Assembly (NCBI GenBank): GCA_963760365.1 | Contig: CAVXDC010000012.1 | Coordinates: 2,475 to 66,474, forward strand | DNA length: 64,000 bases | From: an uncultured Phycisphaerae bacterium | Lineage (GTDB): Bacteria; Planctomycetota; Phycisphaerae; SM23-33 | Reading direction: 5' to 3' | Shown: in pieces, positions 19,420 to 40,910 of the stretch | Numbering within the stretch: position 1 is the stretch's first letter | Layout: the number at the start of each line of letters is the position of its first letter | Position numbers and translations under genes: made by a program | The notes under the pieces: model-generated | Told to the model about the DNA's origin: nothing | The model's input: only the letters and a program-made list of their open reading frames with translations | Database searches by the model: none

Positions 19420-21722
19420 TCAACCGATGGCGATGATGGACTGCATCTCCGTCTGCATGCGGAGGAGCTTGGCGTAGATGCCGCCTTCTTTGGCGGAAAG
19501 TTCCTCGTGAGAACCCTGCTCGACGATCTCACCCTTGTCCAGGATGATCAGCCGGTCGGCCTTGCGGAGCGTGCTCAGGCGGTGGGCAATGGCGATGGTC
19601 GTGCGGTTGGCGATGAGCCGGTCCAAGGCTTCCTGGATGAGCTTTTCCGTCTCGGTGTCCACGGAGCTGGTGGCCTCGTCCAGGATGAGGATGATGGGGT
19701 TGTTGAGGATGGCCCGGGCGATGCTGATCCGCTGGCGTTCTCCGCCCGACAGCGTCTGGCCCCGCTCGCCGACCATCGTGTCGTAACCGTCGGGGAAGCC
19801 CACGATGAAGTCATGGGCGTTGGCGGCCTTGGCGGCGGCGATGATCTCCTCCATCGTGGCGGTGGGTTTGCCGTAGGCGACGTTGGCCCCCACGGTGCCG
19901 TAGAAGAGAAAAGGCTCCTGGAGCACCACGCCGATGCGGCGGCGGAGCTCCTCGATGTCGTAGTCGCGCACGTCCACACTGTCGATGAGGATCTGCCCCT
20001 CCAGCACGTCGTAGAAGCGGCAGATGAGGTTGACCATCGTGGTCTTGCCGCCCCCGCTGGGCCCGGCCAGGCCGACCATCTCGCCTGGGACGATCTTCAA
20101 GCTGACGTTCTTGAGCACCTTGCGGACGCCGTCGTAGCTGAAGCTCACGTCGCGCAGCTCAATCTGGCCCTGGAGGGTCTTGGCCGGCATCGCCCCGCTC
20201 TTGGAGAAGATGGACGGCTCGGTGTCGAGGATCTCGAAGATCCGCTGGACGCTGGTGGCCGCCCGGTTGAACATGCGGTCCATGTGCGCGATCATGTGGA
20301 TGGGCTGGTAGAACATCCACATGTACGACACGTAGGCCAGCAGCGTCCCGGCCGTCATCGCCCCCTCGGCCGGCGTGCGCCGGACATGATGTCGCGCACC
20401 ACCCACCAGCCTCCCACGATCCACACCAGCAGCGCCCCCAATTGCGTGCAGAAAATCATCACCGGCCCAAACAGCGTCCACAGCGAGATCAAGCCGACCT
20501 CGTCCCGGTAAAAGTCGGCGTTCTTCAGCCCGAAGCGATCCACCTCGCGCTGCTCCTGGCTGAAAGCCTTGATCACGCGCACCCCCGGCAGCGAGTCGGC
20601 GACGACGGCCGTCAGCACGCTCCAGCGGTGCCACAAGCGGTCGAAGCCCCGGTGCAGCTTCTGGTGGAACATGACCGAAAAAGCCAACATCACCGGGATC
20701 GGTAGCAGCACGATGCACGCCAACTTCCAGTTCAGCAGGAACAGCGCCACCGCTACCCCGACGATCGTCACCGTGGAGATCACCAGCTCGGTGATCGTGA
20801 AGGCCACGAAGTCCCAGATGCGGTCACTGTCGCTGGTCACGCGCGTCACTAGCGAGCCGGTGGGCTTGCGGGAAAAAAAGCTCAAACTCAGCTTGTGCAG
20901 ATGGTCGTAGGTGCGGTCGCGGACGTCGCGGCTGATCCGCGAGCCCAGCGTGCCCATCAGCCGCTCGCGCAACGCCCCGGCCAGGGCGGAAAAGACCATC
21001 AGGGCCGCCAGGATGAAAATGTACCCCAGCAGCACGGGGTAGCTGGGTTTGCCGTGGGGCACCATGCCCAGTCCCTGGTCCATCATCGGCTTGGTCATCC
21101 ACGGCCGGACGAGCTGCGAGAGCGTCACGAGGATCGCCAGCGTCATGCCGGTAATCGCCCGCCACTTGTAGGGCTTGACGAAGTCCAGCAACCGGCTGAG
21201 CACCTTGCGGCGGCTCAAGCAGGCCGGGCACACCTCGGCCCAGGGCGGGACCACCCGCCCGCATTTGTCGCAGCGAATCTTCTTCTCCTCGCCGCGGGGT
21301 TTGTCGGCCTCGGCCGGGACGTCTTCCTTGCCCTCCAGCCTCCGCTCCAGCCGCCGCTGCAACTTGGCCACCTCCTTGGCCTGGCGGAGCGTGAAGCGGA
21401 ACTCCTCCGCCACCTTCCCGTCGGAAAGGAGGCGCAGCAGGTTCATGCCCAACCCCTCGACAATCAGGGCGCTGCTCAACCCGCCCAGGTCCCTCCACCG
21501 GCTCTGCCATGTTCCGTCGCGAAGGAGAAAATGACCCAACGTCAACTCGGTCAGCACCAGGTAGCCCTCGACGTACATCCCGCGCTCGTCGAGGTCGAGC
21601 CGTGCCGCCTCCTGAACCGATTCCAGCGGCACTGCCGTCGAGATCACCTTCAGGAGCTCGTCGGGGGCGTGGCCCAGCACGTCGTCCTTTTTGTTTTGCT
21701 TGTCCTGTGTGTCTTGCGACAT
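19420..21722 (-). CDS. ABC exporter (fused permease and ATPase) with an unusual ~190-aa N-terminal cytoplasmic extension containing a CxxC...CxxC zinc ribbon; one 1-bp frameshift
   Basis: N-terminal extension (CDKCGRVVPPWAEVCPAC), six-TM ABC exporter domain, then Walker A (GPSGGGKTT), signature (LSGGERQRISIAR) and Walker B (ILILDEATS). The N- and C-terminal frames join if the C5 run at 20361-20365 is read as C6. Confidence 0.85.
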
Positions 21723-23303: not shown

Positions 23304-24047
23304 CTAAGGGGACTTTTCCACGGAGCGGATGCGGGCGACGAAGGCGGCGTAGTCGGCCGGGGTGTCGATGCCGCTGCCGCGATAATCCACCACCGCCACG
23401 GCGACCGCGTGCCCGTGCTCCAACGCGCGGAGCTGCTCGAGTTTTTCGGCCTGCTCCGCCGGCGTGGGCGATAGCGAAGCAAAGAGTTTCAGAAATCCCA
23501 CGCGATAGGCGTACACGCCCAGGTGCAGCAGATAGCGGACGGAGCCGGTGTTGTCGCGGTCGAAGGGGATGCGGCTGCGGGAGAAGTACAATGCCCGTCC
23601 GCGGCCATCCAGCACGACTTTAACTTTGTTGGGGTCGTCGGCCTGATGGGCCGACAGGGGCGTCGCCAGCGTGGCCATGGGTGCCTCGGAGCCTTCCAGC
23701 AGGTCGACCAGCTTGTCCACGCACGCCGGCTGCATGTCCGGCTCGTCCCCCTGGACGTTGACCACGATGTCGGCCTCAGTCAGGCCCAGCTTGATGGCGG
23801 CTTCGTGGATGCGGTCGGTGCCGCAGGGGTGGTCCGGGCGGGTCATCACGGCCTGGCCGCCGAAGGCCTCCACGGCCGTGGCGATTCGCCGATCGTCGGT
23901 GGCCACGACGATCCGCGTGATCCGCTTAGCCGTACGGATGGATTCCACCACGTGCTGGATGAGGGGTTTGCCCGTCTCGGCGAGCAAAGGCTTACCCGGC
24001 AGGCGGGTAGAGGCGTATCGGGCGGGGATAATGACCACCGCGCTCAT
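23304..24047 (-). CDS. kdsB: 3-deoxy-manno-octulosonate cytidylyltransferase (CMP-Kdo synthetase)
   Basis: MSAVVIIPARYASTRLPGKPL...VNVQGDEPD...RYLLHLGVYAYR are the canonical KdsB motifs. Confidence 0.9.
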   Translation of the reverse strand: MSAVVIIPARYASTRLPGKPLLAETGKPLIQHVVESIRTAKRITRIVVATDDRRIATAVEAFGGQAVMTRPDHPCGTDRIHEAAIKLGLTEADIVVNVQGDEPDMQPACVDKLVDLLEGSEAPMATLATPLSAHQADDPNKVKVVLDGRGRALYFSRSRIPFDRDNTGSVRYLLHLGVYAYRVGFLKLFASLSPTPAEQAEKLEQLRALEHGHAVAVAVVDYRGSGIDTPADYAAFVARIRSVEKSP

Positions 24048-24088
24048 GGCCGATGAGTCTATGCCGAAACGTCCGAAATGCAACAGGA

Positions 24089-24811
24089 CTACCGCCGGCC
24101 CAGGCCGTACTTGAGGATGCACCAAAGGGTCTTGAGGCCGTCGCGCCAGCCGATCTTTTTGCCTTCGGCCCGGCTGCGGGCGCGGTAGCTGACAGGGACT
24201 TCCGTCACTCGCACGCCCAGGTGGGCGATCTTGGCGGTGAACTCCGGCTCAAAGCCGAAGCGATCCTGCTCCAGGCGGATGCCTTGGAGCACCTGCCGGC
24301 GGAACATCTTGTAGCAGGTCTCCATGTCCGTCAGGCCTAGGCCGGTGGTTCGGTTGGATAAAAACGTCAGGAAGCGGTTGGCCAGATAGTTTTGCCACGT
24401 CCCCTTGCGGGAGCCGCCGGCAGCGAAGCGGCTGCCGTAGACCACCTCGGCTGTACCGGCAAGGAGAGGCGCGAGCAGTTTGGGGAAATCGGCGGGGTCG
24501 TATTCCAGGTCGGCGTCCTGGACGACGAGGATGTCACCGTCGGCGGCGGCGAAACCCGTTCGCAGGGCCGCGCCTTTGCCCCGGTTGACGTCATGGAACA
24601 GCACCTTGACCGCCGCTGGGCCCCTGGATTCGGGGCTGCCCTCCAGCGCTTGGGCGTAATCCCGCAGTTGCTCGCGCGTGCCATCGCGCGAGCCGTCATC
24701 CACCAGGACGATCTGCCGGTCGCAGGGTAACGGGACGGCCTGGACGCGGGCGACGACCTGCCGCCATACGTCTCGCTCGTTGCAGACGGGGATCACGATG
24801 GTGAGCATCAT
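24089..24811 (-). CDS. Family 2 glycosyltransferase resembling polyprenol-phosphate sugar transferases (DPM/ArnC type)
   Basis: LTIVIPVCNER...VLVDDGSRDGT...VVQDADLEYDP is a GT2 DXD-type fold. Confidence 0.85.
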   Translation of the reverse strand: MMLTIVIPVCNERDVWRQVVARVQAVPLPCDRQIVLVDDGSRDGTREQLRDYAQALEGSPESRGPAAVKVLFHDVNRGKGAALRTGFAAADGDILVVQDADLEYDPADFPKLLAPLLAGTAEVVYGSRFAAGGSRKGTWQNYLANRFLTFLSNRTTGLGLTDMETCYKMFRRQVLQGIRLEQDRFGFEPEFTAKIAHLGVRVTEVPVSYRARSRAEGKKIGWRDGLKTLWCILKYGLGRR

Positions 24812-24839
24812 GCCCTCACCGGTGGCGGGGATGGGGGCG

Positions 24840-26057
24840 TCAGGGCTTCTCCGCACCCTGGCCCTTGTCTGATTTGGATTCAGTCTCCTTGGAAGGCGGG
24901 GTAACCATGCCCAGCTTGAGGAAGACGCCCCAGATGATCACCAGCATCACCGCGTAAAGAGCCGCCGCGTACCGGCCCCGCAGATGGGTCGCGACCAATA
25001 CCCCCACGACCGCCGCCACAACCGCCAGGATGTAGAACAGCACCACGACTTGCTTAACCGTCATGCCGCGGTCCACGAGCTGGTCGTACAGGTGGCTGCG
25101 GTCACCGGCAAAGATGTTCTTGCCGGCCAGCACCCTCCGCACGACGGCCAAGGCCGTGTCCAGGATCGGCAGGGCATAAATGGCACAGGCTGCGATCAGC
25201 CAGCGAAACGTCCCTTCCTTGGAGAATAAGGCCATCATCGTGGCCACGAAGAACCCCAGGAGCATGCTGCCGGCGTCGCCCATGAAAATGCTGGCCGGTG
25301 GGATGTTGTAGGGCAGGAAGCCCAGCACCGCCCCCGCCATGGCCAGGCACACACCGACCCGCAAGTCGTCGGTGTCGGGAAAGCGGCCGTAGGTGGCCAG
25401 CCACACCGCCAGGGCCAGATACCCCACGGCGATGATGCCCGTCACGCCCCCGCACAGCCCGTCCAGGCCGTCCAGCAGGTTGGTGGCGTTGCAGGTGCAG
25501 ACCACGACGATAAACAGGAGCAGTCCGCGGAGGGGAACCAGGACCCACAGGGGCAGCGATAGCCCCACCAGACTACAGAACACACCCGCCAAACCGGTGC
25601 CCACGCCGCCCACCAGGAGCACCCCGGCTGCGACAGCTTGGCCGTAGATCTTCTGCCGGGGTGTCAGGCTGTAGATGTCGTCCAGCAGTCCCACGATGGT
25701 GATCAGCACGGCAGCCACTGCGAAGGCCAGGGCTTTGAGGAGCGAATTGGAGTGCAACTTCTCGATATCCGCGGCCGCTAGGGCCTGGCCGATCCCGCTC
25801 CAATACTCCTGCAGGTTGGGCATGGAGGCGATGTAGCAGGCCACGCCGACTAGCAACCCCGCGCACATCGCCAGCCCCCCCAGATACGCCACCGGACGGC
25901 GGTGGGGCTTCAACCAGTCATTGGGACGATCGACAAGCTGCTTTTGGTAGGCAATCCACCGGACGATGGGCGTCACGACCAGCGAAACGCCCAACGCCAC
26001 GACACCAATCCACCACTTCCTCTCGAGAACCTGGATAAAAGACTCAGCCGGAAGCAT
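24840..26057 (-). CDS. Undecaprenyl-phosphate HexNAc-1-phosphate transferase (WecA/MraY family, GT4)
   Basis: Ten or more TM segments with NATNLLDGLDGL and DxxD motifs typical of polyprenyl-phosphate N-acetylhexosamine-1-P transferases. Confidence 0.85.
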   Translation of the reverse strand: MLPAESFIQVLERKWWIGVVALGVSLVVTPIVRWIAYQKQLVDRPNDWLKPHRRPVAYLGGLAMCAGLLVGVACYIASMPNLQEYWSGIGQALAAADIEKLHSNSLLKALAFAVAAVLITIVGLLDDIYSLTPRQKIYGQAVAAGVLLVGGVGTGLAGVFCSLVGLSLPLWVLVPLRGLLLFIVVVCTCNATNLLDGLDGLCGGVTGIIAVGYLALAVWLATYGRFPDTDDLRVGVCLAMAGAVLGFLPYNIPPASIFMGDAGSMLLGFFVATMMALFSKEGTFRWLIAACAIYALPILDTALAVVRRVLAGKNIFAGDRSHLYDQLVDRGMTVKQVVVLFYILAVVAAVVGVLVATHLRGRYAAALYAVMLVIIWGVFLKLGMVTPPSKETESKSDKGQGAEKP

Positions 26058-26180
26058 CAATGAACTTGACCTCGGTACACACCACAACGAGCAGACCGCC
26101 CTGGGGCGGGAAGGTCCAGTCTGGACGTCTGATTACTATACCTCGCACGCTTTAAGAGCACAACCGCCCGGCCGCTGCCG

Positions 26181-27287
26181 TCAGCCCGTGCGCCCGGGAC
26201 GGTAGTCTTCAAACAGCCTCCCCCAGGGGCTGTGGGCCAGCCAATCGTTGACCGTCTTGCGGCCGACTAGCGGGTACCACAGATGGTCGTGGTACACGGC
26301 CGAGGCGACGATGAAGGCGTACACGATCGGCGTGTGGAACATGAGGTGCTGAAGCCAGCGCAAGGGTCCGAACCACAGCAGCTTTCCCATGCGGCCGGCG
26401 GCGTTGAGGCCGGTGTGGAAGCCCCAGTTCTCAGCGGCGGCCTCGGCGTCACCGACGATCTCGATCTCCTCTGTCCGCCCGACGCCCAGCCCGCGTTCAT
26501 GCGCCAGGCGGATAAAACCGTGGTCCATCGGGTCAAAGCCCATCATCTTGATGGCCACGGCGTCGACGGCCACGCAGTCGGATGAGGCCAGCAGGACGTT
26601 CTTGGTCAGCGGGGTCATCGTCCGCGGACCGGCCCCGTTGCCGGCGGTCGTGCCGTCGGTGAGGACGAAAAGACCCCGGAAGATCTCCTTCTGGATGGCC
26701 AGCAGGTCCACCAGCGTCTCGTGGATCCGGCTGTGGCAGTAATGCCGCTTGTTGTCCAGCATCGCGCCGAAGGCGTTCTTCATCGAGCCGGAGACGTTGG
26801 TGTAGATGTGGCACTTCATCGTCGGCAGGTGGACGATGTTCTTGCCGTGGAGGTAGTCCGGGATGCGGATACCTTCCGGGAAGATGTCGTGCAGCGCGAG
26901 CATCGGGGCCTGTGGCTGATAGACCTGCCAGGTCATGTCCGACGGGCGGAAGTTATACTTGATCGGTACGCCGTAGTGGTCGCAGACCATCCGATGCTTG
27001 TTGAGCCTCTCGCCCTTCTCGGCGTTGGTCACGACCGTCTCGTTCTCCAGGCACACCAGGTCGCGCAATCCCGCCTCCCGCAAGGCCAGGATCGCCCCCT
27101 CCAGCTGCCAGGGGGTGGTGTTGGCGCCGGGGTACATCAAGTGCCAGGAAAGATTCTTCTTAAGGATCGTGGTGGCCGAAGAATTCATTGCCTGCTTCAG
27201 CCCCCCTAGCTCCATCACGCGCCGCACGTCGGCCAGGACTGTCTCCGGGGCCGTCCTCACTACCGCGACTTTGCTGCGCATCGCCAT
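26181..27287 (-). CDS. DUF362 domain protein
   Basis: LKKNLSWHLMYPGANTTP...DGTTAGNGAGP pattern typical of the DUF362 family. The assignment is from memory of the family and is moderate. Confidence 0.5.
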   Translation of the reverse strand: MAMRSKVAVVRTAPETVLADVRRVMELGGLKQAMNSSATTILKKNLSWHLMYPGANTTPWQLEGAILALREAGLRDLVCLENETVVTNAEKGERLNKHRMVCDHYGVPIKYNFRPSDMTWQVYQPQAPMLALHDIFPEGIRIPDYLHGKNIVHLPTMKCHIYTNVSGSMKNAFGAMLDNKRHYCHSRIHETLVDLLAIQKEIFRGLFVLTDGTTAGNGAGPRTMTPLTKNVLLASSDCVAVDAVAIKMMGFDPMDHGFIRLAHERGLGVGRTEEIEIVGDAEAAAENWGFHTGLNAAGRMGKLLWFGPLRWLQHLMFHTPIVYAFIVASAVYHDHLWYPLVGRKTVNDWLAHSPWGRLFEDYRPGRTG

Positions 27288-27385
27288 AATAAGCCTCCGG
27301 TAATACTCTCATGTGAATTATATCAAATGAAGGAGGAGCAGCAGCGCGCCACTAAAAGCAGTCACTGTGTGGGTGGTCGTCTCGT

Positions 27386-28297
27386 TCAATAGTACCGCCC
27401 TAGCCACTGCTGGATCGCCCGGCCTTGCCAGAGGACGACCACGACCATCAGCCCCCACAAGAACACGGTCAACTGGAAGGGTCGGTCGCGGAGGATCAGA
27501 TGGGTCGGGTCGGCGTGCCGTCCGAAACTGGAGAGCATCTCGAAGCGGCAGATGCCGTAGATGACCAGCGGCAGCGTGTAGAGAAGGTAGTCGGTGCCGA
27601 AGTGCTCCACCGTTCGCGTCGAGGTGGCGTACAGCAGGTACGAGACGATCGCGATGCCCGCCGACAGGGTCGTCAGGTGCGTCAGGAGTTGTGGGATGTA
27701 GAAGGGCAGGGTCAATCGATGCTGGGCGGCCGTCTTGGTGTCGTCGATGGCGGCGACCTCGCTCCGCCGCTTGCAGAAGCCCATGAACAGGCAGATGGTG
27801 AAGGTGCAGATGAATAGCCAGGGGCTGAGTTCCACGTGGATGGCCACCGCCCCGGCGGCCGCCCGCAGCACGAAGCCCAGGGCAATGCACATGACGTCCA
27901 CGATCATTCGGGTCTTGAGGTACCACGTGTAGGCCGCCTGGAGCAGGACATACGAGGCCAGGACGAGCAGCGTGATCGGGCCCAAAATCCACGCCATGGC
28001 CGCACCGGCTGCCAGCAACACCGCCGATTCCACCCAGGCGGTGCGTACGGACACCTGCCCGCTGGCTAGGGGGCGGTCCTTTTTCTGCGGATGCAGGAGG
28101 TCGGCGTGGCGGTCGTGGATATCGTTGGCGACGTAGGCGGCGCTGGAGACCAGGCAAAAGGCTACCGCCGCTATCGCGGCCTGCGCCCAGGCCACCGGGT
28201 CGTTCACGCGCAGCGCAAAGACCACCGGAAACAGCACGATGCTGTTTTTGATCCAGTGTTCGGGCCTGGCCAGGCGAACCAGGGAAGTGATGTTCAT
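27386..28297 (-). CDS. UbiA-family prenyltransferase resembling decaprenyl-phosphate phosphoribosyltransferase (DPPR synthase)
   Basis: NDIHDRHADLLHPQKKDRPLASGQVS matches the first Asp-rich motif with the HPxK..RPxAxGxV extension characteristic of the DPPR synthase subgroup. Eight to nine TM helices. Confidence 0.7.
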   Translation of the reverse strand: MNITSLVRLARPEHWIKNSIVLFPVVFALRVNDPVAWAQAAIAAVAFCLVSSAAYVANDIHDRHADLLHPQKKDRPLASGQVSVRTAWVESAVLLAAGAAMAWILGPITLLVLASYVLLQAAYTWYLKTRMIVDVMCIALGFVLRAAAGAVAIHVELSPWLFICTFTICLFMGFCKRRSEVAAIDDTKTAAQHRLTLPFYIPQLLTHLTTLSAGIAIVSYLLYATSTRTVEHFGTDYLLYTLPLVIYGICRFEMLSSFGRHADPTHLILRDRPFQLTVFLWGLMVVVVLWQGRAIQQWLGRYY

Positions 28298-28344
28298 GGC
28301 ATTTCCTACGCCCAGCGGCTTCGGCGGGTCTTGCACTTTTGGCT

Positions 28345-28365
28345 CTTGGTTCTTGGTTCTTGGTT
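28345..28365. repeat. Tandem heptamer repeat (cttggtt)x3 in the divergent promoter region between the UbiA-like and GT-C genes
   Basis: ggct cttggtt cttggtt cttggtt aaaa. A related block ggttcttggct...tcaagtt tcaagtt ccaagtt taaaaag occurs at 31383-31428 upstream of the pglF operon. Confidence 0.6.
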
Positions 28366-28497
28366 AAAATTCATCGACAGGAACCTAAGTGCGTCTTGAG
28401 GTCAACGCGCCTTGCCCGACCGGACCATCCTGTTTATCAGTCGGGACGGCGGTTTGCCTTTGAAAGGTCCGGCCTGCTCCCGCTAACATCTACGCCG

Positions 28498-30081
28498 ATG
28501 ACGAGCGTTCCATCCCAACCGTCCCAGACTACCGGCAGGCGGACGGTGCTATTGTGGTTGGGCACCTTTCTCGTTTTCTCGCTGCTTTACGTCGCCACCG
28601 CTCAACAAGGCGTGAATTGGCAGGACAGCGGTAGCCGGCAGTGGCGGATCCTGACGGGGACTTATCGCGACCCCCTGGGATTGGCCCTGGTGCACCCGCT
28701 CTACATCGCCGTCGGCCAGGTGTTGGTGGCGGTTCCTCTGGGCAGCGTCACGGCCCGGTTGAACGCCCTCAGCGGCCTGGCCATGGCAGCGGCCTTGGCG
28801 AACTTCGCCTGCCTCGTGGCGGTGCTGGCGGGCCGGCGATGGATCGGCCTTGCGACCGCGGCCATGCTGGCGGTCTGCCACACCGTCTGGTGGCTGGCGA
28901 CCATCACCGAAAGTTACACGCTCAACGCCTTCTTGTTTACGGCGGAGCTGTGGTTGCTGGTGGCGCTGCTCCGCCGGCCGCGAACGGTTGTGCTGGTCGG
29001 TCTGGCGCTGGTCTGCGGGTTGAATTGGTCCGTGCACAACATGGCCCTGCTGGCCTTGCCGGTTTACGCGGTGGCGGCGGTGGTGCTGATGGCCCGGCGC
29101 CGCTTGCCGGTCTGGTCGGCCGTGGCGGCGGTGTTGGCCTTTGTCGCTGGAGCCTTACCGTTCCTCCTCCTGATCGTGCGCCAGGGTCAGGCCAGCGGGG
29201 ACCTGCTGGGGGCGATGCACTCGGCCTTGTTTGGAGCGTTTCGGACCGACGTGCTCAACGTTTCGGTGGGCCGGCCGATGATGGGCGTCAACGCCGCCAT
29301 CGCGGCGTTGAATTTCGTCTCTCCTCTGCCGGTGCTGGCCGTGATCGGCTGGTGGAGCTTGCGCCGCCTGCCGCACCGACCCACGGCCTATGCCTTGGCG
29401 GTCCTGACGCTGATCGAAATCCTTTTCGTCAGCCGCTACCCCGTCCCGGATCAGTTCATGTTCTTGCTGCCCAGCCTGGTGATGATCGCCCTGGCCGCTG
29501 CGTTGGGCGTGGCGACGCTGGTCGACGCTTCCCCCCCATGGCGCAAAGCGGCCATAGCAGCCTGCCTCCTTTCGATCGCCATGCCCCCGGCCCTGTACGC
29601 CGCCGCGCCCCGCTTGGCGGCTTGGTTGGGCGTGCAAATTCACCGGCCCCGCCAGCTTCCCTTCCGCAACGAGCTTCGGTATTGGTCCGTGCCCTGGAAG
29701 CACGACGAGCGGTCCGCCGACCTGTTCGCCCGCCGCGCCCTCACCGAGGTGGATGATGGGGCAGTCGTGCTGGTGGACATCACCGCGATGGACACGCTCC
29801 GAGTGGCCCAGAAGGTGTACGGCCTTGGCCCGAGGGTGGTTCTCACCGGCGAGCAAGGCCCGCTGGGGGACTACCAGCGCGATCCGCAGGCCTTCCGGAT
29901 CGCCCTGGGCACCCGGCCGCTGTACGTCCTCTCACCCATCCGTGGTTATCTCCCCGACAAGCTTCTGGCCGACGCGGACTTCGTCCAGAAACAGGGGCAG
30001 GTGCTCTACCAGGTCGTGTGGAAGCACCCGCTACCGATCCCTGCACCGCCTTCCTCAACACCGACGTCCACGAAGAATTAG
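28498..30081 (+). CDS. GT-C-type polytopic membrane glycosyltransferase (DUF2723/PMT-like)
   Basis: Ten or more TM helices in the N-terminal two-thirds with a periplasmic-loop acidic motif, then a C-terminal soluble domain. The architecture matches lipid-linked-sugar-dependent GT-C enzymes. The start is uncertain: the computed ORF starts at 28339 inside the heptamer repeat. Confidence 0.55.
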   Translation: MTSVPSQPSQTTGRRTVLLWLGTFLVFSLLYVATAQQGVNWQDSGSRQWRILTGTYRDPLGLALVHPLYIAVGQVLVAVPLGSVTARLNALSGLAMAAALANFACLVAVLAGRRWIGLATAAMLAVCHTVWWLATITESYTLNAFLFTAELWLLVALLRRPRTVVLVGLALVCGLNWSVHNMALLALPVYAVAAVVLMARRRLPVWSAVAAVLAFVAGALPFLLLIVRQGQASGDLLGAMHSALFGAFRTDVLNVSVGRPMMGVNAAIAALNFVSPLPVLAVIGWWSLRRLPHRPTAYALAVLTLIEILFVSRYPVPDQFMFLLPSLVMIALAAALGVATLVDASPPWRKAAIAACLLSIAMPPALYAAAPRLAAWLGVQIHRPRQLPFRNELRYWSVPWKHDERSADLFARRALTEVDDGAVVLVDITAMDTLRVAQKVYGLGPRVVLTGEQGPLGDYQRDPQAFRIALGTRPLYVLSPIRGYLPDKLLADADFVQKQGQVLYQVVWKHPLPIPAPPSSTPTSTKN

Positions 30082-30130
30082 GGGTGTTTTGAGCCCCCCC
30101 GGGGCGTAATAATGTAAGAAGAGGAAAGGC

Positions 30131-31249
30131 ATGGGTCGGTGGAGAGCAATGTGGTTGGTGGCCGCTGCAGCCGCCATTGCGGTAGGTCCACCTTTTGCCC
30201 CTGCCCAAGTCCGCGGGCAGGTAAATATCGGCTCCCCTGGAACGCTAAGAGATGTCGGAAGTTCGGGGGTCGTTGCCACGTTCCGCAACACCTCCTATGG
30301 CCTGGGTGCGCTCCAGTCGCCCGTAGGTGCCCCCTCCAGCAACCTTCTCCGCAGCGCGATGGAGTCCCGGGCATCCTATACCATCAGCCGACCCGGCGGG
30401 GATTCTTTTCTAGGTCAACCGTCTGTGTCTCTGACGCCCTTGCCCGGTTCCGGCATGCGCCTTTCCAGACCGATGCTGGCGGGAAGCCCAGGTCTGTATG
30501 CGGGCGGTTCTGGCGAGGATCCTCTGGCCTCGGATTCGCGACTGCTCAAGGCCACGTCCACCTACCTCAACGCCCTGGGCGGGAACCAGGATGTGGGCAT
30601 TGCCACGCGGTTGAGTCCCATCATCTCTCTGGTGACGGGGGGCGACGACCAGTTCAGCACTTATATGGAAGAGGGTGAGAAGGCCTTTCGCGCCGGGGAT
30701 TACGACAACGCGATGGAGCGCTTCAAGATGGCCAACACCGTCAACCCCAAAAACCCCGATTGTCTCCTGAGCCTGGCCCATGCCAGCTTCGCCATCAGCA
30801 GGAATTCCTACTATCGGGCGGCCTACTACCTCACCCGCGCGCTGAAGTTCATGCCGGATATGCCCCTGCTCCCGATCCAACCTCAGGCGTTCTATGCCTC
30901 CCCGGAGCAGTATACCCAGCGGATCGACTGGCTGGACAAGCATCTCCAGAGCAATCCCTTCGACAACGACGCCTTCTTCGTGGCAGCCTATTTCCGCTGG
31001 TTCCAGCAGGACTTCGAGGGCGCCCGCCTGGCCTTGGAGAAGGCCCGCCGCGGCAAGATCAATCCCGACCTCCGGGAGGCCGTCAACACGTTTTGGGACG
31101 GCATGAAGGCCAGCGGCAAGCTCAGCGGGACGGCGGAAGGTTCGGGCGCTTCCGAACCGCCTGCGGGGCCGTCTTCTCAACCCACCCTGACTCCACCTCT
31201 GCTGCCGATGGAAAGTCCCACCACCGCACCGGCGGCATCCGCCCGATGA
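30131..31249 (+). CDS. Secreted TPR-repeat protein
   Basis: Signal peptide (MWLVAAAAAIAVGPPFAPAQV), TPR-like helices (AFRAGDYDNAMERFKMANTVNPKNPDCLLSLAHASFA) and a Pro/Thr-rich tail. Confidence 0.6.
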   Translation: MGRWRAMWLVAAAAAIAVGPPFAPAQVRGQVNIGSPGTLRDVGSSGVVATFRNTSYGLGALQSPVGAPSSNLLRSAMESRASYTISRPGGDSFLGQPSVSLTPLPGSGMRLSRPMLAGSPGLYAGGSGEDPLASDSRLLKATSTYLNALGGNQDVGIATRLSPIISLVTGGDDQFSTYMEEGEKAFRAGDYDNAMERFKMANTVNPKNPDCLLSLAHASFAISRNSYYRAAYYLTRALKFMPDMPLLPIQPQAFYASPEQYTQRIDWLDKHLQSNPFDNDAFFVAAYFRWFQQDFEGARLALEKARRGKINPDLREAVNTFWDGMKASGKLSGTAEGSGASEPPAGPSSQPTLTPPLLPMESPTTAPAASAR

Positions 31250-31304
31250 ATGTTGCAGCCCGTCCCGAACCCACCCCGTCATTGCCACGCATTAAGGATG
31301 CCTG

Positions 31305-31333
31305 TTGAAGGGAAGGTAGGCGTGGCCTATAAT
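31305..31333 (+). promoter_or_regulatory. Near-consensus sigma70-type promoter upstream of the pglF-degT-degT operon
   Basis: TTGAAG, 17-bp spacer, TATAAT (31305-31310 and 31328-31333), about 110 bp upstream of ATG 31443, followed by a lower-GC leader carrying heptamer repeats. Confidence 0.55.
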
Positions 31334-31442
31334 CCTAAATTCGCCTGAATCAGGCATCGACAAGAGACCTAGCGACAAGACCTGGTTCTTGGCTTAAGGC
31401 TTCAAGTTTCAAGTTCCAAGTTTAAAAAGCTAAGACTTAAGA

Positions 31443-33470
31443 ATGATAGAACCCCCCTCCACAGGAGCGAGAAGGCCCTCTTCCGGCGGGTTCGCCTGGA
31501 CGGAAGGATTGCTGCTGAAGCACCGTCTGACCTTCAACGTCGTGGTCCACGCGGTGCTGTTTGCGCTGGCGCTGCTCCTGGCCTACTTGGTCCGTTTTGA
31601 GGTGGCCGGAGAGCAGGCCCGAAAGGGGTGGTTCCTGAGCTCCTTCCTGCCGATGCTGCCGTTCTTTATCATCGTCAAGATCATCATCTTCGGGGCGACC
31701 AACCTTTTCCGCGGCGGCTGGCAGTACGCCTCGATCCGCGACATCGGAAACATCCTGTTTGCCTCGTGGTTGTTCCTGCTGGTGATGTATGTGCCGATCG
31801 TCGCGGTCCGCTGGCTTGAGGCCTATGGGGGCGTGACGCTGGCCTACGTAGGTGACTACATCAAGTCCTACCCAACCGGTGTGCTGTTTTTGGACTTCCT
31901 GGCCAGCATCTTCCTGGTCTGCACGGCCCGGCTGGGGTTCCGTATCTACCGCGAGGAGCTTCGGCCGATGTCCAAGGAGGGGGTGCGCCGCGTGCTGGTT
32001 GTCGGGGCCGGGAACGCGGCCGAGGCGATCGTCCGGGAGATCCACCGCATGCCCGTGGAGCGATTCAGGGTTATCGGCCTGGTGGACGACGACCCGGCCA
32101 AGCAGCATCTGATCATCCACGGCGTGCCCGTGTTGGGCCACACGACTGAGATCCGGCGGATCTGCGAAGAGGAGGACGTCGAGGAGATTATCGTCGCGAT
32201 GCCCTCGGCCACGCAGAAGGAGCTCCGCCGCGTGATTGAGCTGTGCAGCGGCACGAAGCTGAAGTTCCAATCGCTGCCGGGCGTGAGCGACCTGATCGAC
32301 GGGCGGGTGACCGTCTCGCAGATCCGCCCGGTGGACATCCACGACCTCCTGGGCCGCCAGGCCGTGGCCCTGGATAGCGAGGCCATCGGCCGGTTCCTCC
32401 GCGGTCGGCGGGTGCTCATCACCGGGGCCGGTGGGAGCATCGGCTCGGAGATGTGCCGTCAGGTAGCCCATTACCAGCCCGCTCAGCTCATCCTTGTGGA
32501 GCAGGCCGAAAACCCTCTCTACGAGATCGAGAACGAGCTGCGCTCCAGGCACGGCGACATCCCGCTGGTCGTCTGCGTGTGCGACATCTTCGACCGCCAG
32601 CGCGTCATGAGCGTGTGGAAGACGCACCGGCCGGAAGTGGTCATCCACGCCGCCGCCCACAAGCACGTGCCGCTGATGGAGCACAACCCCTGCGAGGCGA
32701 TTAAGAACAACGTCCTCGGCACGCGCAACGTGGCCGACGCCTCCGTCGCGTACGGCGCGGCGGAGTTCATCACCATCTCCACCGACAAGGCCGTCAACCC
32801 CTCCTCTGTGATGGGCGCCTCCAAGCGCGTCGCGGAGATCTACACGCAGGCCCTCAGCGCCTCCAACAGCAGCAAGACGCAGTTCAAGGCCGTGCGGTTC
32901 GGCAACGTGCTGGACTCGGCCGGCTCGGTCGTCCCCGCCTTCCGCCAGCAGATCGCCGAGGGCGGACCGGTCCGCGTCACCCACCCGGAGATGCGGCGAT
33001 ACTTCATGACCATCTCCGAGGCCTCGCAACTGGTCCTCCAGGCCGCCGCGACGGGAACCGGCGGGCAGATCTACGTGCTGGACATGGGCGAACCGGTCAA
33101 GATCGTGGACCTGGCGCGGCAGATGATCACCCTCAGCGGCTTTCGGCCCGGGGAGGACATCGACATCGCCTTCACCGGCGTCCGTCCCGGCGAGAAGCTC
33201 TTTGAGGAGCTGCGCACCTCCGGAGAGGACATCGAACCGACCGTCCATCCCAAGGTGCTCGTCTGGCGTAGTAAGCCTATGGACCTGGCCGTCATCAACA
33301 AGGTCATGGACGAGCTGGAGGCGCTGGCGAACTCCACGGACCGCCCCAAGATCATCGCTGCGCTCCAGCGCCTGGTACCGGAGTACGCACCCCTCAATTC
33401 TCCCTCGCCGGCCGAAGGGGGAATCGCCTCGGTTTCCTCGGCGGCGGGCGACGCTCTGGCGACCCCATGA
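31443..33470 (+). CDS. Membrane-anchored UDP-N-acetylglucosamine 4,6-dehydratase (PglF/CapD/WbpM family)
   Basis: Four N-terminal TM helices, a Rossmann core (LITGAGGSIGSE), and the catalytic region (HAAAHKHVPLME...STDKAVNP..MGASKRVAE). Confidence 0.9.
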   Translation: MIEPPSTGARRPSSGGFAWTEGLLLKHRLTFNVVVHAVLFALALLLAYLVRFEVAGEQARKGWFLSSFLPMLPFFIIVKIIIFGATNLFRGGWQYASIRDIGNILFASWLFLLVMYVPIVAVRWLEAYGGVTLAYVGDYIKSYPTGVLFLDFLASIFLVCTARLGFRIYREELRPMSKEGVRRVLVVGAGNAAEAIVREIHRMPVERFRVIGLVDDDPAKQHLIIHGVPVLGHTTEIRRICEEEDVEEIIVAMPSATQKELRRVIELCSGTKLKFQSLPGVSDLIDGRVTVSQIRPVDIHDLLGRQAVALDSEAIGRFLRGRRVLITGAGGSIGSEMCRQVAHYQPAQLILVEQAENPLYEIENELRSRHGDIPLVVCVCDIFDRQRVMSVWKTHRPEVVIHAAAHKHVPLMEHNPCEAIKNNVLGTRNVADASVAYGAAEFITISTDKAVNPSSVMGASKRVAEIYTQALSASNSSKTQFKAVRFGNVLDSAGSVVPAFRQQIAEGGPVRVTHPEMRRYFMTISEASQLVLQAAATGTGGQIYVLDMGEPVKIVDLARQMITLSGFRPGEDIDIAFTGVRPGEKLFEELRTSGEDIEPTVHPKVLVWRSKPMDLAVINKVMDELEALANSTDRPKIIAALQRLVPEYAPLNSPSPAEGGIASVSSAAGDALATP

Positions 33471-33511
33471 CTAGGGCCAACAGGCGATAGCGCCCTGGGA
33501 GGACGCAACGT

Positions 33512-34639
33512 ATGGCGGAACAGTCGGTGCCGCTTTCCGGCCCGGACATCACGGACCAGGAGGTGCAGGCGGTCGCCGCGGTGCTTCGCAGCGGCCGACT
33601 GAGCATCGGCCCGCGGCTCCAGGCTTTTGAAACCGCTGTGGCGGCCCGCGCGGGACGAACGCACGGCATCGGGGTCAGCAGCGGCACCTGCGGACTGCAC
33701 CTGGCCGTGCGGGCGCTGGGGATCGGCGAAGGGGACAAGGTCATCACGACCCCGTTCTCGTTCATCGCCACCACCAACTGCCTGCTGTTCGAACGCGCCA
33801 GGCCCGTATTCGTGGACATCGACCCGGCCAGCTACAACCTCGATCCGGCGGCCCTGGAAGCGGCCATTACCCCGCGCTCCAAGGCCATCCTGCCGGTGGA
33901 AGTCTTCGGCCACATGGCCCACTTCGACCGCTACGAGCAGATCGCCCGCCAGCACGGGCTGGCGTTGATCGAGGACTGCTGCGAGGCCCTGGGGGCGGTG
34001 CGGGACGGCCGGCCCGCGGGCAGCTTCGGGGAGGTTGGCGTGTTCGCCTTCTACCCCAACAAGCAGATGACCACCGGCGAGGGTGGGATGATCGTGACCG
34101 ATGACGACCGCCTGGCCGACCTGTGCCGCTCGCTGCGCAACCAGGGGCGCGACACGGCGGACTGGCTGAGCCATGCGCGACTGGGCTACAACTACCGCCT
34201 GAGCGAAATCCATGCCGCCCTTGGGGAAGTTCAGATGCGACGCCTGGACGACCTGCTCGCCCGCCGCCGCCACGCGGCCGACTTGTACGACCACGCCCTG
34301 GGGGAGATCCAGGAGGTGCACCTGCCGCCGATGCACGACCGCGCGACGGCAAGCTGGTTCGTGTACGTCATCCGCCTGGCCGACCGCTTCAGCCAGGCCG
34401 ACCGGGACACGGTCCTGGCGCACCTGCGGGCCGGCGGCATCGGTTGCAACCCGTACTTCGTGCCCATTCATCTCCAGCCGTACATCCGCAAGATGCTGGG
34501 CACGAAAGAGGGCGACTTCCCCGTCACCGAGGCCGTGGCCGAGCGGACCATCGCCCTGCCGTTCTTTGCGGGTCTGAGCGAGGACCAGGTGCAGGCCGTC
34601 AAGAAGGCCCTCACCTCGGCCTTGGCCGCCGTCTCCTAG
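33512..34639 (+). CDS. DegT/DnrJ/EryC1/StrS family sugar aminotransferase (PglE-like)
   Basis: PLP fold-type I sugar aminotransferase motifs (LAVRALGIGEGDKVITTPFSFIAT; FYPNKQMTTGEGGMIV). Confidence 0.9.
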   Translation: MAEQSVPLSGPDITDQEVQAVAAVLRSGRLSIGPRLQAFETAVAARAGRTHGIGVSSGTCGLHLAVRALGIGEGDKVITTPFSFIATTNCLLFERARPVFVDIDPASYNLDPAALEAAITPRSKAILPVEVFGHMAHFDRYEQIARQHGLALIEDCCEALGAVRDGRPAGSFGEVGVFAFYPNKQMTTGEGGMIVTDDDRLADLCRSLRNQGRDTADWLSHARLGYNYRLSEIHAALGEVQMRRLDDLLARRRHAADLYDHALGEIQEVHLPPMHDRATASWFVYVIRLADRFSQADRDTVLAHLRAGGIGCNPYFVPIHLQPYIRKMLGTKEGDFPVTEAVAERTIALPFFAGLSEDQVQAVKKALTSALAAVS

Positions 34640-34718
34640 GGACGTCGCCTCGATGCACGGATCGGCCAAGAAGTCGCAAGGTGGGGAGCGTCCTGCCTCC
34701 GGCAGGGAAAAATCGACC

Positions 34719-35876
34719 ATGAGCCGAGTGCGAGAGGATTTCCAAAAAACCTTTGCGGACTGGCTGGGTGTGCCCTACGCCTTTGCCTTCTGGAGGGGCC
34801 GTGTGGCGATCTATGCCATCCTCCGCGCGCTGGGAATCCAAGAGGGCGACGAGGTCATCCTCCCCGGCTATACCTGCGTGGTCGCGGTCAACCCCATCAA
34901 GTACCTCGGCGCCAAACCGGTGTACGTGGACATTGAACCGCACACCTACAACATCGACGTGGACCAGATCGAGCGGAGGATCACCCCGCGGACCAAGCTC
35001 TTGGTCGCTCAGCACACCTACGGGTATCCGGCGGAGATGGAGGCCATCCTGGACATCGCCCGCCGCCACGGTCTGCCCGTCATGGAGGACTCCTGCCTGG
35101 CGGTGGGGTCGACCTACAAGGGCCGAAAAACCGGCACGTTCGGCCTGGCCTCGTGTTTCTCCGGCCAGTGGAACAAGCCCTTCACCACCGGCATCGGCGG
35201 CATCGCCGTGACCGCCGACCGTGAGCTGGCGGAGAAGATCCGCCGACGGTGCGAGCAGGAGGCCTTCCAGCCGGGAAGGGGGGAGTGCGCCCTGCTGGCT
35301 GCCCAACGCCTGGCCTACAAGGCGGTGGTATTTCCGCAAACCACCGCCGCGGTCCAGTGGTTGTTCCGTTGGCTGGTGAGAAAGAAGGTGCTTGTGGGTA
35401 GCGCAACCCCCAGCGAATGCCGTCTGGAACCCCAAAGGGAGTTCTTCAAACTCATGGGCAATGGGCAGGCCCGTTGTGGGCGGCGGGAGGTCGCCCGATT
35501 GGAAACCAACCTCCAGCACCGCCGCCGCATGACTGCCCTCTATGATCGCCTGCTGACTGAACGGGGTTGGCCGAGGCGGGTGACGCCCGACTACATAGAC
35601 CCTGTTTTAGTCCGCTATCCTATTCGCGTGGCCGACAAGGCCCGGGCCGTCGCCTTAGCCGCCCGCAAGGGCATCGAGCTGGGCACGTGGTTTGAGTCGC
35701 CCCTGCACCAGGCGCTGGTGTCGCTGGATCATTACGACTATGCTTTCGGCTCCTGTCCCGTGGCCGAGCGGGCCACCCGCGAGGTGGTCAACCTGCCCAC
35801 CCACCGCCGCGTCAGCCCGCGCGTGGCCCGCAAGACCGTCAACTTCATCTGCCGGATCGGCCCGTCCCAACTCTAA
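34719..35876 (+). CDS. Second, divergent DegT-family aminotransferase
   Basis: ILRALGIQEGDEVILPGYTCVVAVNPI...LAVGSTYKGRKTGTFG. The ATG at 34719 was preferred over the upstream extension. Confidence 0.75.
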   Translation: MSRVREDFQKTFADWLGVPYAFAFWRGRVAIYAILRALGIQEGDEVILPGYTCVVAVNPIKYLGAKPVYVDIEPHTYNIDVDQIERRITPRTKLLVAQHTYGYPAEMEAILDIARRHGLPVMEDSCLAVGSTYKGRKTGTFGLASCFSGQWNKPFTTGIGGIAVTADRELAEKIRRRCEQEAFQPGRGECALLAAQRLAYKAVVFPQTTAAVQWLFRWLVRKKVLVGSATPSECRLEPQREFFKLMGNGQARCGRREVARLETNLQHRRRMTALYDRLLTERGWPRRVTPDYIDPVLVRYPIRVADKARAVALAARKGIELGTWFESPLHQALVSLDHYDYAFGSCPVAERATREVVNLPTHRRVSPRVARKTVNFICRIGPSQL

Positions 35877-38867: not shown

Positions 38868-38910
38868 GGTTCTCCACAAAGCGGGGGTTCTGCACACGCG
38901 AATCGTCGTG
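38868..38910. repeat. GTAGGG-hairpin element (8-bp inverted repeat gtgtgcag/ctgcacac) at the ribBA 3' end and the low-GC islet boundary
   Basis: GTAGGG TGTGCAG gttctccacaaagcgggggtt CTGCACAC immediately after the ribBA stop. Same GTAGGG-plus-palindrome format as the elements at 6896, 39806 and 40886. Confidence 0.5.
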
Positions 38911-38959
38911 TTGGTTTTCTGTGGGCAACAAGTTGCCCACCCTACTGGACTTGACTGGG

Positions 38960-39748
38960 CTACTCAAACGGGCTCAAGGTATCTCTATTCGGGAATTGGA
39001 AGCTCAGTTTTGTGCCAACCGAAGCATTTGACGGAATACCCCCTGGTGGGTCGTATGCACCTACACAACCATGGCTTCTGGGCCAACGTGAATCGGCCAA
39101 TTTCTCCCAATCGTATATGCGCAATGCCCAGAAACATATTGGATCCCCATTGTCGGCTCGCACGAATACACACTCGTAGACGCACTTCCCATTGCAGCAC
39201 TCGATGCGGTCGAGATTCCTGGCCAAGCGGTTCTTCTTGATCACCTCCGGGACGAAGGATTGCTGGTCTAGGATATCATTAAACATAATTTTCTCCCCAT
39301 TTCTTCGACCCTTTGGGAAAGGTGTATGCACGAAGGAAGGGTTGGTTCTCGGCAAGTGCACATGATAGAGAGCTGCGTGGAAGCCTCGAACCCATCTCCA
39401 AACGATCCGATCCAGATTGATGTTCGTAGTGAAGGCAATAGGCGTGGCATCGTCCTGCAGTCTTCCGGCTGTGATGGCGAGACGTTGCCGTTCAGGTCGA
39501 GGAAGGCGTCCATGGTGCGCTGAAACTAACTGGGCTACGAGTTCATCCTCTCCAGACTCGGCATCGTTGCAACTGGGGTGCGTGAGCAGGATCAAAGGGT
39601 CTCCTCGATCAGCCTCAAGGAAGATCGCTTTAGGAGGAACGTGATCCCGGTTTGGCTGCTCCGCCTTCTCGAAAGGTTTGCCGCACAGGTAGCAGAAGTC
39701 TAACCTTGCACAAATCTGTAGTTCCCTTTGTGTCACGATCTGGATCAA
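38960..39748 (-). CDS. HNH endonuclease-like protein (low-GC islet)
   Basis: CYLCGKPF...NRDHVPPKAIF is an HNH-type motif (CxxC...DH..P). GC content is clearly lower than the surroundings. The likely start is TTG 39746-39748 after a GAGG ribosome-binding site, because the computed upstream extension overlaps a GTAGGG hairpin. Confidence 0.5.
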   Translation of the reverse strand: MIQIVTQRELQICARLDFCYLCGKPFEKAEQPNRDHVPPKAIFLEADRGDPLILLTHPSCNDAESGEDELVAQLVSAHHGRLPRPERQRLAITAGRLQDDATPIAFTTNINLDRIVWRWVRGFHAALYHVHLPRTNPSFVHTPFPKGRRNGEKIMFNDILDQQSFVPEVIKKNRLARNLDRIECCNGKCVYECVFVRADNGDPICFWALRIYDWEKLADSRWPRSHGCVGAYDPPGGIPSNASVGTKLSFQFPNRDTLSPFE

Positions 39749-39805
39749 GTAGTGCCTCGATTTATCTTTGCTGTTTCTCTTTACATCGTTCAGGTAGTTG
39801 CGTAG

Positions 39806-39830
39806 GGCGGGAGAATCGTTTCCCGCAGCT
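39806..39830. repeat. GTAGGG-hairpin element, copy A (gtagggcgggagaatcgtttcccgc)
   Basis: Matches copy B at 40886-40910 in 22 or 23 of 25 positions. Sits between the two low-GC islet genes. Confidence 0.6.
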
Positions 39831-39845
39831 AATGAGACACTGGCC

Positions 39846-40885: not shown

Positions 40886-40910
40886 CAGCTTGTAGGGCGG
40901 GAAACTCGTT
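40886..40910. repeat. GTAGGG-hairpin element, copy B (gtagggcgggaaactcgtttcccgc; perfect 9-bp stem)
   Basis: gcgggaaac-tc-gtttcccgc palindrome preceded by GTAGG, at the far boundary of the low-GC islet. Confidence 0.6.

Follow-up and report, generated by a model that had tools for sequence, protein, structure and literature searches.

This analysis concerns a 64-kb stretch of DNA from an uncultured Phycisphaerae bacterium (contig CAVXDC010000012.1), called the window from here on. Its G+C content is about 65%. Positions 23304-35876 hold a cluster of envelope-glycan genes, and at the centre of this cluster two genes point away from each other. One encodes an enzyme of the UbiA superfamily, the other a polytopic membrane glycosyltransferase of the GT-C type. 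Judged by its sequence, the UbiA protein is a polyprenyl-phosphate 5-phosphoribosyltransferase (PPPRS, or DPPRS). The locus as a whole probably provides an extracytoplasmic route for pentofuranose glycosylation, within a Phycisphaerae envelope-glycan cluster. The original prediction for this DNA had proposed periplasmic glycosylation that depends on polyprenyl-phosphate-pentose, and both homology and conserved synteny support this idea.

The UbiA assignment had started from a single motif, NDIHDRHADLLHPQKKDRPLASGQV, which is indeed present in the translation. Profile scores go well beyond that. The NCBIfam model for DPPRS, NF008977, scores 258 bits on this protein (cut-off 234), and NF008978 scores 210.3 (cut-off 207). 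The nearest solved structure is Rv3806c of Mycobacterium tuberculosis (8j8j, E 3.4e-33), with residues 4-283 aligned to its residues 15-293. The second-nearest solved relatives are archaeal UbiA proteins, at E 2e-7. The NCBI pipeline names close homologs polyprenyl-phosphate 5-phosphoribosyltransferase.

For Rv3806c, the residues that bind Mg, pyrophosphate and phosphoribose have been listed, and prenyltransferases are stated not to share those that contact the phosphoribose (PMC10994848). In the alignment, R22, K28, Y70, N73, D77, K87, R90, Q135, Y138 and K143 of Rv3806c are identical in the UbiA protein. The Mg and pyrophosphate ligands N73, D77, R22, K87, R90, K143 and Y138 correspond to N58, D62, R11, K72, R75, K128 and Y123. 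The phosphoribose contacts K28, Y70, Q135 and Y157 become K17, Y55, Q120 and F142, and this replacement of Y157 by Phe is also found in mycobacteria. With that position counted as kept, 11 of the 12 substrate-binding residues are there. The sole loss is K208, which is L195 here, beside an invariant R194. Among 30 aligned family members these positions are invariant or nearly so. The PPPRS identity follows from the NCBIfam scores, the similarity to Rv3806c and the conserved phosphoribose contacts taken together.

It is hardly credible that the protein is instead a quinone, heme o or chlorophyll-type prenyltransferase whose likeness to DPPRS is superficial. Some automatic JGI annotations do label close homologs 4-hydroxybenzoate polyprenyltransferase, and the only Pfam domain found is PF01040, which is the generic UbiA family. 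However, the models for heme o synthase, UbiA, MqnP and chlorophyll synthase reach 20-49 bits, where their cut-offs lie at 200-400 (heme o synthase 49, UbiA 42, chlorophyll synthase 34; MenA-type models no more than 49), and the two DPPRS models pass theirs. The phosphoribose contacts just described argue the same way. An aromatic or tetrapyrrole prenyltransferase is effectively ruled out, and on profile scores, the Rv3806c match and kept residues, the enzyme sides with the DPPRS enzymes, as predicted.

The second line of evidence is gene order. A UbiA-centred set of 80 genome loci, all from Planctomycetota and mostly from Phycisphaerae, was searched with hidden Markov models built from homolog sets. 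The GT-C gene adjoins UbiA in 24 of these loci, and lies within 3.4 kb in 4 more; counted over 82 UbiA-centred loci, GT-C is within 3.4 kb in 28. For the reciprocal scan, metagenome contigs were searched with the GT-C alignment, which gave 80 GT-C-centred loci. UbiA is found in 36 of them and is adjacent in 32, mostly head to head; another 21 have no UbiA despite room on both sides. Of the pooled 82 informative loci, 55 have UbiA and GT-C side by side, 6 have the two close together, and in 21 GT-C stands without UbiA.

The orientation of the pair varies. In close relatives the genes are head to head. In more distant ones they are co-directional (UbiA>GT-C), and often overlap. Adjacency to UbiA spans several GT-C subclades, and a few subclades lack it altogether. 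The pairing that had been noticed in this window is therefore not due to chance: a conserved adjacency that tolerates rearrangement ties UbiA to GT-C.

A larger block also recurs in many contigs, at 40-70% protein identity. It consists of genes for a family 2 glycosyltransferase (GT2), an MraY/WecA-family transferase (GT4 in Pfam naming), a DUF362 protein and UbiA on one strand, followed on the other strand by GT-C, a gene for a tetratricopeptide repeat (TPR)-like protein, PglF and DegT. This makes the cluster a conserved neighbourhood and not a one-off. Not every part is equally common. GT4 is present in 11 of 80 GT-C loci and 6 of 82 UbiA loci, and a TPR-like homolog follows GT-C in 15 of 80 GT-C loci and 7 of 82 UbiA loci. 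A PglF-like gene follows GT-C or the TPR-like gene in some 15-21 of the 80 GT-C loci. GT2 recurs beside GT4 in related loci, and the second, atypical DegT gene is rarely conserved.

The surveys also turned up two groups with other neighbours. In a divergent UbiA subgroup (below about 50% identity), a conserved gene for a protein of about 800 aa lies directly upstream of UbiA. Its only Pfam match is a faint one to the heparinase II/III C-terminal family. No DUF2723 GT-C is nearby in these loci (L038, L046, L048, L052, L055, L056, L059, L060, L063, L066, L070, L071, L073, L076, L079), and the protein looks like a different, uncharacterised UbiA partner. Conversely, some GT-C relatives without an adjacent UbiA (L114, L117, L118, L125, L133, L135) have as neighbours LpxC, a second GT-C of the PMT_2 type, an acetyltransferase resembling PglD and a nucleotidyltransferase resembling MobA. 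This hints at a link between that subclade and lipid A or lipopolysaccharide (LPS).

The GT-C protein has one Pfam match, PF11028 (TMEM260-like, formerly DUF2723), at 38.0 bits against a gathering threshold of 24.2. A profile search of the PDB likewise finds a single sequence relative, human TMEM260, at E 1.8e-8. The protein is 511-527 aa long and has about 11 transmembrane helices; its C-terminus forms a periplasmic alpha/beta domain of some 120 aa (residues ~400-510). An invariant WQDSG motif of the family sits in the first periplasmic loop. Its D43 aligns with D52 of TMEM260 (GGDSG), the proposed catalytic Asp of that protein.

An AlphaFold2 model based on 67 homologs has a mean predicted local distance difference test score (pLDDT) of 93.3 and a predicted template modelling score of 0.92. 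The best Foldseek matches of this model are ArnT at the top, then STT3/PglB, ALG9/ALG12 and DPY19, so the prediction of a GT-C fold can be made with confidence. EmbB and AftD (both E ~1e-2) and Pmt4 match more weakly, and the TM-score to ArnT is ~0.55. In Pfam, no match to PMT_2, PMT or Arabinose_trans was found at E <= 0.01, so that any likeness to ArnT (GT83), PMT (GT39) or Emb (GT53) enzymes is at the level of the fold. In the absence of such profile matches, and with TMEM260 as its one sequence relative in the PDB, the protein is not a standard ArnT; the original prediction had named a standard ArnT as an outcome that would count against it.

The gene directly downstream of GT-C had been described as encoding a secreted TPR protein. 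The gene and its signal-peptide-like N-terminus hold up. The TPR label is weakly supported, given that all TPR matches are below the Pfam thresholds, the best at 22.3 bits against a cut-off of 25. The protein also has N- and C-terminal regions rich in Ser, Pro and Gly. It may be a substrate-recognition partner of GT-C, or its substrate. The GT-C protein itself has no fused C-terminal TPR domain; it ends in the small alpha/beta domain.

From these parts a pathway can be proposed. By homology, the UbiA enzyme would move 5-phosphoribose from phosphoribosyl pyrophosphate (PRPP) to polyprenyl phosphate at the cytoplasmic face, giving polyprenyl-P-ribofuranose-5-P. The 5-phosphate would then be removed, the sugar might be tailored, and the lipid-linked pentose would be flipped to the periplasm. 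There, as fold, catalytic motif and adjacency suggest, GT-C would use D43 of the WQDSG loop to transfer the pentofuranose from its lipid carrier to a periplasmic acceptor. Candidates for this acceptor are an LPS-like glycan, some other polysaccharide of the envelope, and a protein that the TPR-like partner recognises. The rest of the envelope glycan would be supplied by the WecA/MraY-like primer transferase, the Dpm1/ArnC-like synthase, the PglF and DegT enzymes, and KdsB. Since the window has no DprE1/E2 or epimerase of the short-chain dehydrogenase/reductase (SDR) type, the default donor would be ribofuranose, unless the DUF362 protein alters it.

This DUF362 protein is unusually well conserved. 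Its top 120 homologs (P0241-P0360) have 71-90% identity across Planctomycetota, which is far above its neighbours UbiA (55-87%) and GT-C (41-78%). Two invariant motifs, TKCHIYT and RHYCHS, contain His and Cys, and such a pattern suggests a metal or cofactor site. The AlphaFold2 model (pLDDT 80) ends in helices, at residues 296-361, that could bind the membrane.

In Pfam, DUF362 shares clan CL0471 with the N-terminal domain (DUF2088) of the LarA racemase/epimerase (PMC11770544). The best fold match among solved structures is a LarA-like nickel-pincer (NPN) enzyme, 9q3k, at E 3.7e-4; with a TM-score of 0.39 this is a partial match. Sequence and profile searches of the PDB gave no meaningful match for DUF362, and no sequence similarity to LarA. 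The link to LarA is therefore based solely on the Pfam clan and this one fold match. The conserved Cys/His pattern here also differs from the Lys/His sites of LarA.

Directly downstream of UbiA, DUF362 is found in 22 loci, one SDR epimerase subfamily in 12 and GT-C in 11. Within 3 kb of UbiA, DUF362 is present in 26 of 118 loci and the SDR in 13. The two are never found together, where about 3 cases would be expected if they were independent; this is suggestive, not significant. They also fill the same slot (GT4<X<UbiA<) in otherwise collinear blocks. DUF362 is thus a candidate tailoring enzyme for the lipid-linked pentose. This is kept as a lead and not as a conclusion, because orthologs at 71-73% identity lie in unrelated contexts and there is no sequence-level link to LarA. 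A fuller version can be spelled out, which is rather unlikely. DUF362 would be a metal-dependent, membrane-associated epimerase or oxidoreductase of the LarA clan that acts on polyprenyl-P-ribofuranose, in place of DprE1/DprE2 or the SDR epimerase found in known systems. In Planctomycetota, the TMEM260-family GT-C and its separately encoded TPR partner would then use the product to add pentofuranose to LPS or to proteins of the envelope.

Several observations weigh against a pentofuranose route. About a quarter of the informative GT-C loci have no UbiA nearby. Two steps of the pathway have no assigned proteins, as neither the phosphatase nor the flippase was found in the window or among recurrent neighbours. 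Specifically, the scanned genes of the 64-kb window include no PAP2 or HAD phosphatase, no MATE, SMR or GtrA flippase and no DprE1/E2. Nor is a phosphatase, a flippase or DprE1/E2 among the 25 commonest families in 144 other genes that neighbour UbiA/GT-C pairs, where SDR epimerase/dehydratase is the leading family. The sole characterised member of the GT-C family, TMEM260, uses dolichyl-P-mannose and not a pentose. Another polyprenyl-P-sugar donor for this GT-C could come from the GT2 of the cluster. Donor, acceptor and anomeric outcome are all inferred.

That last role of GT2 leads to an ArnC/ArnT-like or LgmA/LgmB-like route, which is possible, if unlikely. In such a route, PglF and DegT would make an amino sugar, GT2 would load it onto polyprenyl phosphate, and GT-C would move it to lipid A, LPS core or protein, with the UbiA product feeding a transferase elsewhere. 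The nearest relatives of GT2 are all polyprenyl-phosphate sugar synthases (DPMS, ArnC, GtrB, PpgS, AglJ), the top structural match of GT-C is ArnT, and TMEM260 uses a polyprenyl-P-hexose. KdsB is in the operon, and the UbiA-less GT-C relatives lie near LpxC, PglD-like and nucleotidyltransferase genes. However, GT2 is present in only about 15 of some 160 surveyed loci, against 55 where UbiA adjoins GT-C. The adjacency of UbiA and GT-C also outlasts changes in orientation and order, whereas in the conserved block GT2 never stands directly beside GT-C. Some loci, such as L015, L024 and L036, have UbiA>GT-C with no GT2 within reach.

It is also conceivable, and quite improbable, that this is a loose neighbourhood of envelope genes with no common pathway. 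Regulation or history would then have kept UbiA and GT-C together, with the UbiA product serving as no glycosyl donor at all, being for example a lipid-linked intermediate for another cell-wall component. In this direction point the 46 of 118 UbiA loci without GT-C, DUF362 or SDR within 3 kb, the different ~800-aa protein that precedes UbiA in the more divergent group, and the unrelated contexts of DUF362 orthologs. Yet the rate of adjacency is far above that of two unlinked genes in genomes of several megabases, and it is seen in two gene orders and several GT-C subclades. In addition, polyprenyl-P-ribose and its derivatives have no known use other than as donors for GT-C enzymes (PMC11127046).

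The features of the cluster are listed in Table 1. All ten genes named in the original prediction were found by open reading frame (ORF) list, Pfam and NCBIfam scans, at or very near the positions it gave. UbiA is the first gene of a leftward operon in which it is followed by DUF362, the MraY/WecA-family transferase, GT2 and kdsB, with short intergenic gaps. The rightward set is made up of GT-C, the TPR-like gene, the PglF-type dehydratase gene and two DegT-family genes.

Table 1 Features of the envelope-glycan cluster, in window coordinates.
Feature	Position	Strand	Remarks
kdsB, CMP-Kdo synthetase	23304-24125	-	PF02348 E 3e-56; last gene of leftward operon
GT2, polyprenyl-phosphate sugar synthase type (Dpm1/ArnC/GtrB/PpgS-like)	24089-24856	-	PF00535 E 1e-34
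MraY/WecA-family polytopic polyprenyl-phosphate N-acetylhexosamine-1-phosphate transferase (GT4, Pfam naming)	24840-26087	-	PF00953 E 5e-34
DUF362 protein	26181-27287	-	PF04015 E 1.5e-22; directly downstream of UbiA
UbiA-superfamily PPPRS/DPPRS	ORF 27386-28336, likely ATG 28297	-	303 aa counted from ATG
UbiA/GT-C divergent intergenic region	28298-28497	.	~200 bp; shared control region presumed
GT-C, DUF2723/TMEM260-like	ORF 28339-30081, likely start 28498 or 28546	+	PF11028
Secreted TPR-like protein	30131-31249	+	signal-peptide-like N-terminus; sub-threshold TPR matches
PglF/CapD/WbpM-type UDP-N-acetylhexosamine (HexNAc) 4,6-dehydratase, membrane-anchored	31443-33470	+	PF02719 E 7e-116 and N-terminal CoA_binding_3
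DegT/PseC/PglE-type sugar aminotransferase	33512-34639	+	PF01041 E 4e-122
Second, atypical DegT-family pyridoxal phosphate enzyme	34653-35876	+	PF01041 E 2e-70, match split in two stretches

The kdsB call is firm in NCBIfam as well, with 292 bits for NF003952 (cut-off 193) and 242 for TIGR00466 (cut-off 155). From a 247-aa homolog in a related locus (L001), where kdsB has the same position, its start is likely near 24047. The counterpart of the UbiA/GT-C spacer in that locus is 165 bp long. Scans for promoters and terminators gave as many matches as expected by chance; one promoter-like match, at 28460-28489, is within the spacer.

GT2 consists of a catalytic domain only, of about 242 aa, without C-terminal transmembrane helices. 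The NCBIfam models that fit it best, AglJ, PpgS and ArnC, do not reach their cut-offs, and its best PDB relatives are DPMS (5mlz, E 4e-18), then ArnC and GtrB. The MraY/WecA-family transferase matches the NCBIfam models of WecA and MraY below cut-off, and its best PDB relatives are MraY structures. Below cut-off too are the matches of the PglF-like dehydratase to PseB and FnlA, and those of the first DegT enzyme to PseC, LegC and ArnB. PglF and DegT are proposed to make a sugar of the 4-amino-4,6-dideoxy-HexNAc type. ARAGORN also reports a tRNA-Glu(CTC) at 34268-34339 (-), inside this DegT gene and antisense to it. As Rfam gives no confirmation at gathering score, this call is probably a false positive.

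The nearest homologs of the window proteins are from metagenome-assembled genomes of Phycisphaerae and other Planctomycetota. The cluster is flanked by housekeeping genes, namely those for phosphoenolpyruvate carboxykinase, an MsbA-like ABC exporter, tsaB, an ACT-domain protein, Memo, a CDP-alcohol phosphatidyltransferase and ribBA. The exporter gene (ABC_membrane and ABC_tran, 19420-21722, -) is frameshifted and split into two overlapping ORFs. With tblastn, the intact 767-aa homolog in L001 matches in one frame with residues 1-448 and in another with residues 449-767, the junction being near 20379. The single frameshift reflects either a pseudogene or an error of assembly. The tsaB-like gene (PF00814, 21957-22694, +) lies within a mechanical ORF of 599 aa that is antisense to the exporter gene, and was spotted by codon-position GC.

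Further along, the G+C content drops to 0.58-0.59 at 38900-44200, from ~0.65 elsewhere, and few ORFs there have the codon bias of the genome. After this stretch come a DUF3826 gene, tRNA-Ser(TGA) at 43079-43167 and a phage-type integrase at 43361-44164; the stretch may be an element integrated at tRNA-Ser. A cluster resembling type II secretion and type IV pilus systems is found at 44453-54051 (-), with a T2SSE ATPase, T2SSF, PilM, PilN, GspH-like pseudopilins and others with an N-methyl motif, and a DUF7305 protein. Pilins of Pseudomonas are glycosylated by the lipid-linked arabinofuranose pathway. At 60167-63977 (-) an AcrB-family ORF of 1075 aa is preceded, with a gap of 26 nt, by one of 185 aa, and this shorter ORF fits the N-terminal portion of the Pfam profile that the longer one matches. 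Possible explanations are a disrupted gene and a pair of adjacent paralogs truncated at the window end.

If the pentofuranose route is real, it is the first functional lead for bacterial members of DUF2723/TMEM260, a family to which a human gene for a congenital-glycosylation disease belongs. It suggests that such members could use a polyprenyl-phosphate pentose instead of mannose. It would also extend the pathway of PRPP-derived pentofuranose to Planctomycetota, whose envelope glycans have hardly been characterised. DUF362, a large family of no known function, would become a candidate for a missing step, be it epimerisation or other tailoring of the lipid-linked sugar.

The original prediction drew its analogy from mycobacteria. 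In these, the decaprenyl-phosphoarabinose pathway uses the DPPRS Rv3806c, the PAP2 phosphatase Rv3807c, DprE1/DprE2 and GT-C enzymes of the Emb and Aft types. The analogy stands for the first enzyme, which is homologous over its full length and shares the substrate-binding residues, and for a GT-C that would use a lipid-linked pentose outside the cytoplasm. It does not extend further. The window has no DprE1 (FAD oxidase) or DprE2 (SDR reductase), no PAP2 and no Emb/Aft-type GT-C, and arabinose is therefore not indicated. Any likeness to EmbB and AftD is one of fold only. A PAP2 gene next to UbiA was seen in one distant relative only, L002.

Human TMEM260 is a protein O-mannosyltransferase with a fused luminal C-terminal TPR domain. 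It has in common with the system described here the GT-C module, the catalytic Asp in a DSG motif (D52/D43) and an associated TPR module. In the bacterial system the small alpha/beta domain takes the C-terminal place, and the TPR-like module is encoded by a separate gene downstream. Genomic context suggests polyprenyl-P-pentose as the donor, as opposed to dolichyl-P-mannose.

The lipid A modification by ArnC/ArnT (with LgmA/B and FlmF2/FlmK) is comparable in that a GT2 synthase, an aminotransferase and a GT-C are clustered, here beside the LPS gene kdsB, and in that ArnT is the top structural match of GT-C. Here, however, there is no Pfam match to PMT_2/ArnT, the aminotransferase and GT2 are far below the ArnB and ArnC cut-offs, and equivalents of ArnA, ArnD and ArnE/F are absent.

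The closest parallel is in Citrobacter youngae. There, the O antigen receives alpha-linked ribofuranose in the periplasm, through the joint action of a MATE flippase, a polyprenyl phosphoribose synthase and a GT-C of family GT136 (Kelly et al. 2024, PMC11127046). The parts in C. youngae O1/O2 are ORF15 (PPPRS), ORF14 (MATE flippase), ORF12 (GT-C/GT136) and the optional ORF13, an SDR epimerase that turns the donor into xylofuranose; homologs of DprE1/E2 go with arabinofuranose systems (PMC11127046). The same logic had been proposed earlier for the pilin of Pseudomonas (PMC11127046). Systems of PPPRS and GT-C outside Actinobacteria are thus already published, and were termed widespread (PMC11127046). 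That paper makes no mention of Planctomycetes, DUF362 or TMEM260, and literature searches found nothing on UbiA/GT-C pairing in Planctomycetes, nor on TMEM260 with arabinofuranose.

Both systems have a PPPRS gene beside a GT-C gene in a surface-glycan cluster, in a diderm host that is not an actinobacterium, and in sister loci of the one described here an SDR epimerase also stands beside the synthase. The differences are in the parts. The synthase here is 303 aa long and lacks the fused HAD phosphoribose phosphatase, with no HAD or PAP2 gene in the window to replace it, and no MATE or SMR flippase is among the window genes scanned. The GT-C, which in Pfam matches PF11028 only, belongs to DUF2723/TMEM260 and probably not to GT136, an ArnT-like founding family. 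DUF362 takes the epimerase slot, and the lineage is Planctomycetota. The principle of PPPRS with GT-C outside Actinobacteria is therefore established, and what is new are variant parts and not the concept. The variant features are a TMEM260-family GT-C as a probable pentofuranosyltransferase, the Planctomycetota host, the absence of the canonical accessory genes from the cluster, and DUF362 in the epimerase position.

UbiA homologs are also found on plasmids. A tblastn search of plasmid records hits haloarchaea, Bacteroidota, Rhizobium, Legionella and cyanobacteria; the same search of phage records finds only an unannotated 6.6-kb fragment. The closest plasmid-borne relatives, at ~40% identity, are haloarchaeal (L170, hits H2-H4, H7). 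On the Haloterrigena plasmid NZ_CP149788.1 (L170), DPPRS and an SDR epimerase gene point away from each other, and two GT-C genes are close by. On a Flammeovirgaceae plasmid, DPPRS is accompanied by genes for an FAD oxidoreductase and an SDR, the DprE1/DprE2 pair. In Legionella adelaidensis, DPPRS is followed by a GT39-like GT-C, beside lptA, lptC and kpsF. A comparison by hhalign of the GT-C family described here with the DPPRS-associated GT-C proteins of Legionella and Flammeovirgaceae gave no similarity. It follows that PPPRS pairs with different GT-C families, depending on the lineage.

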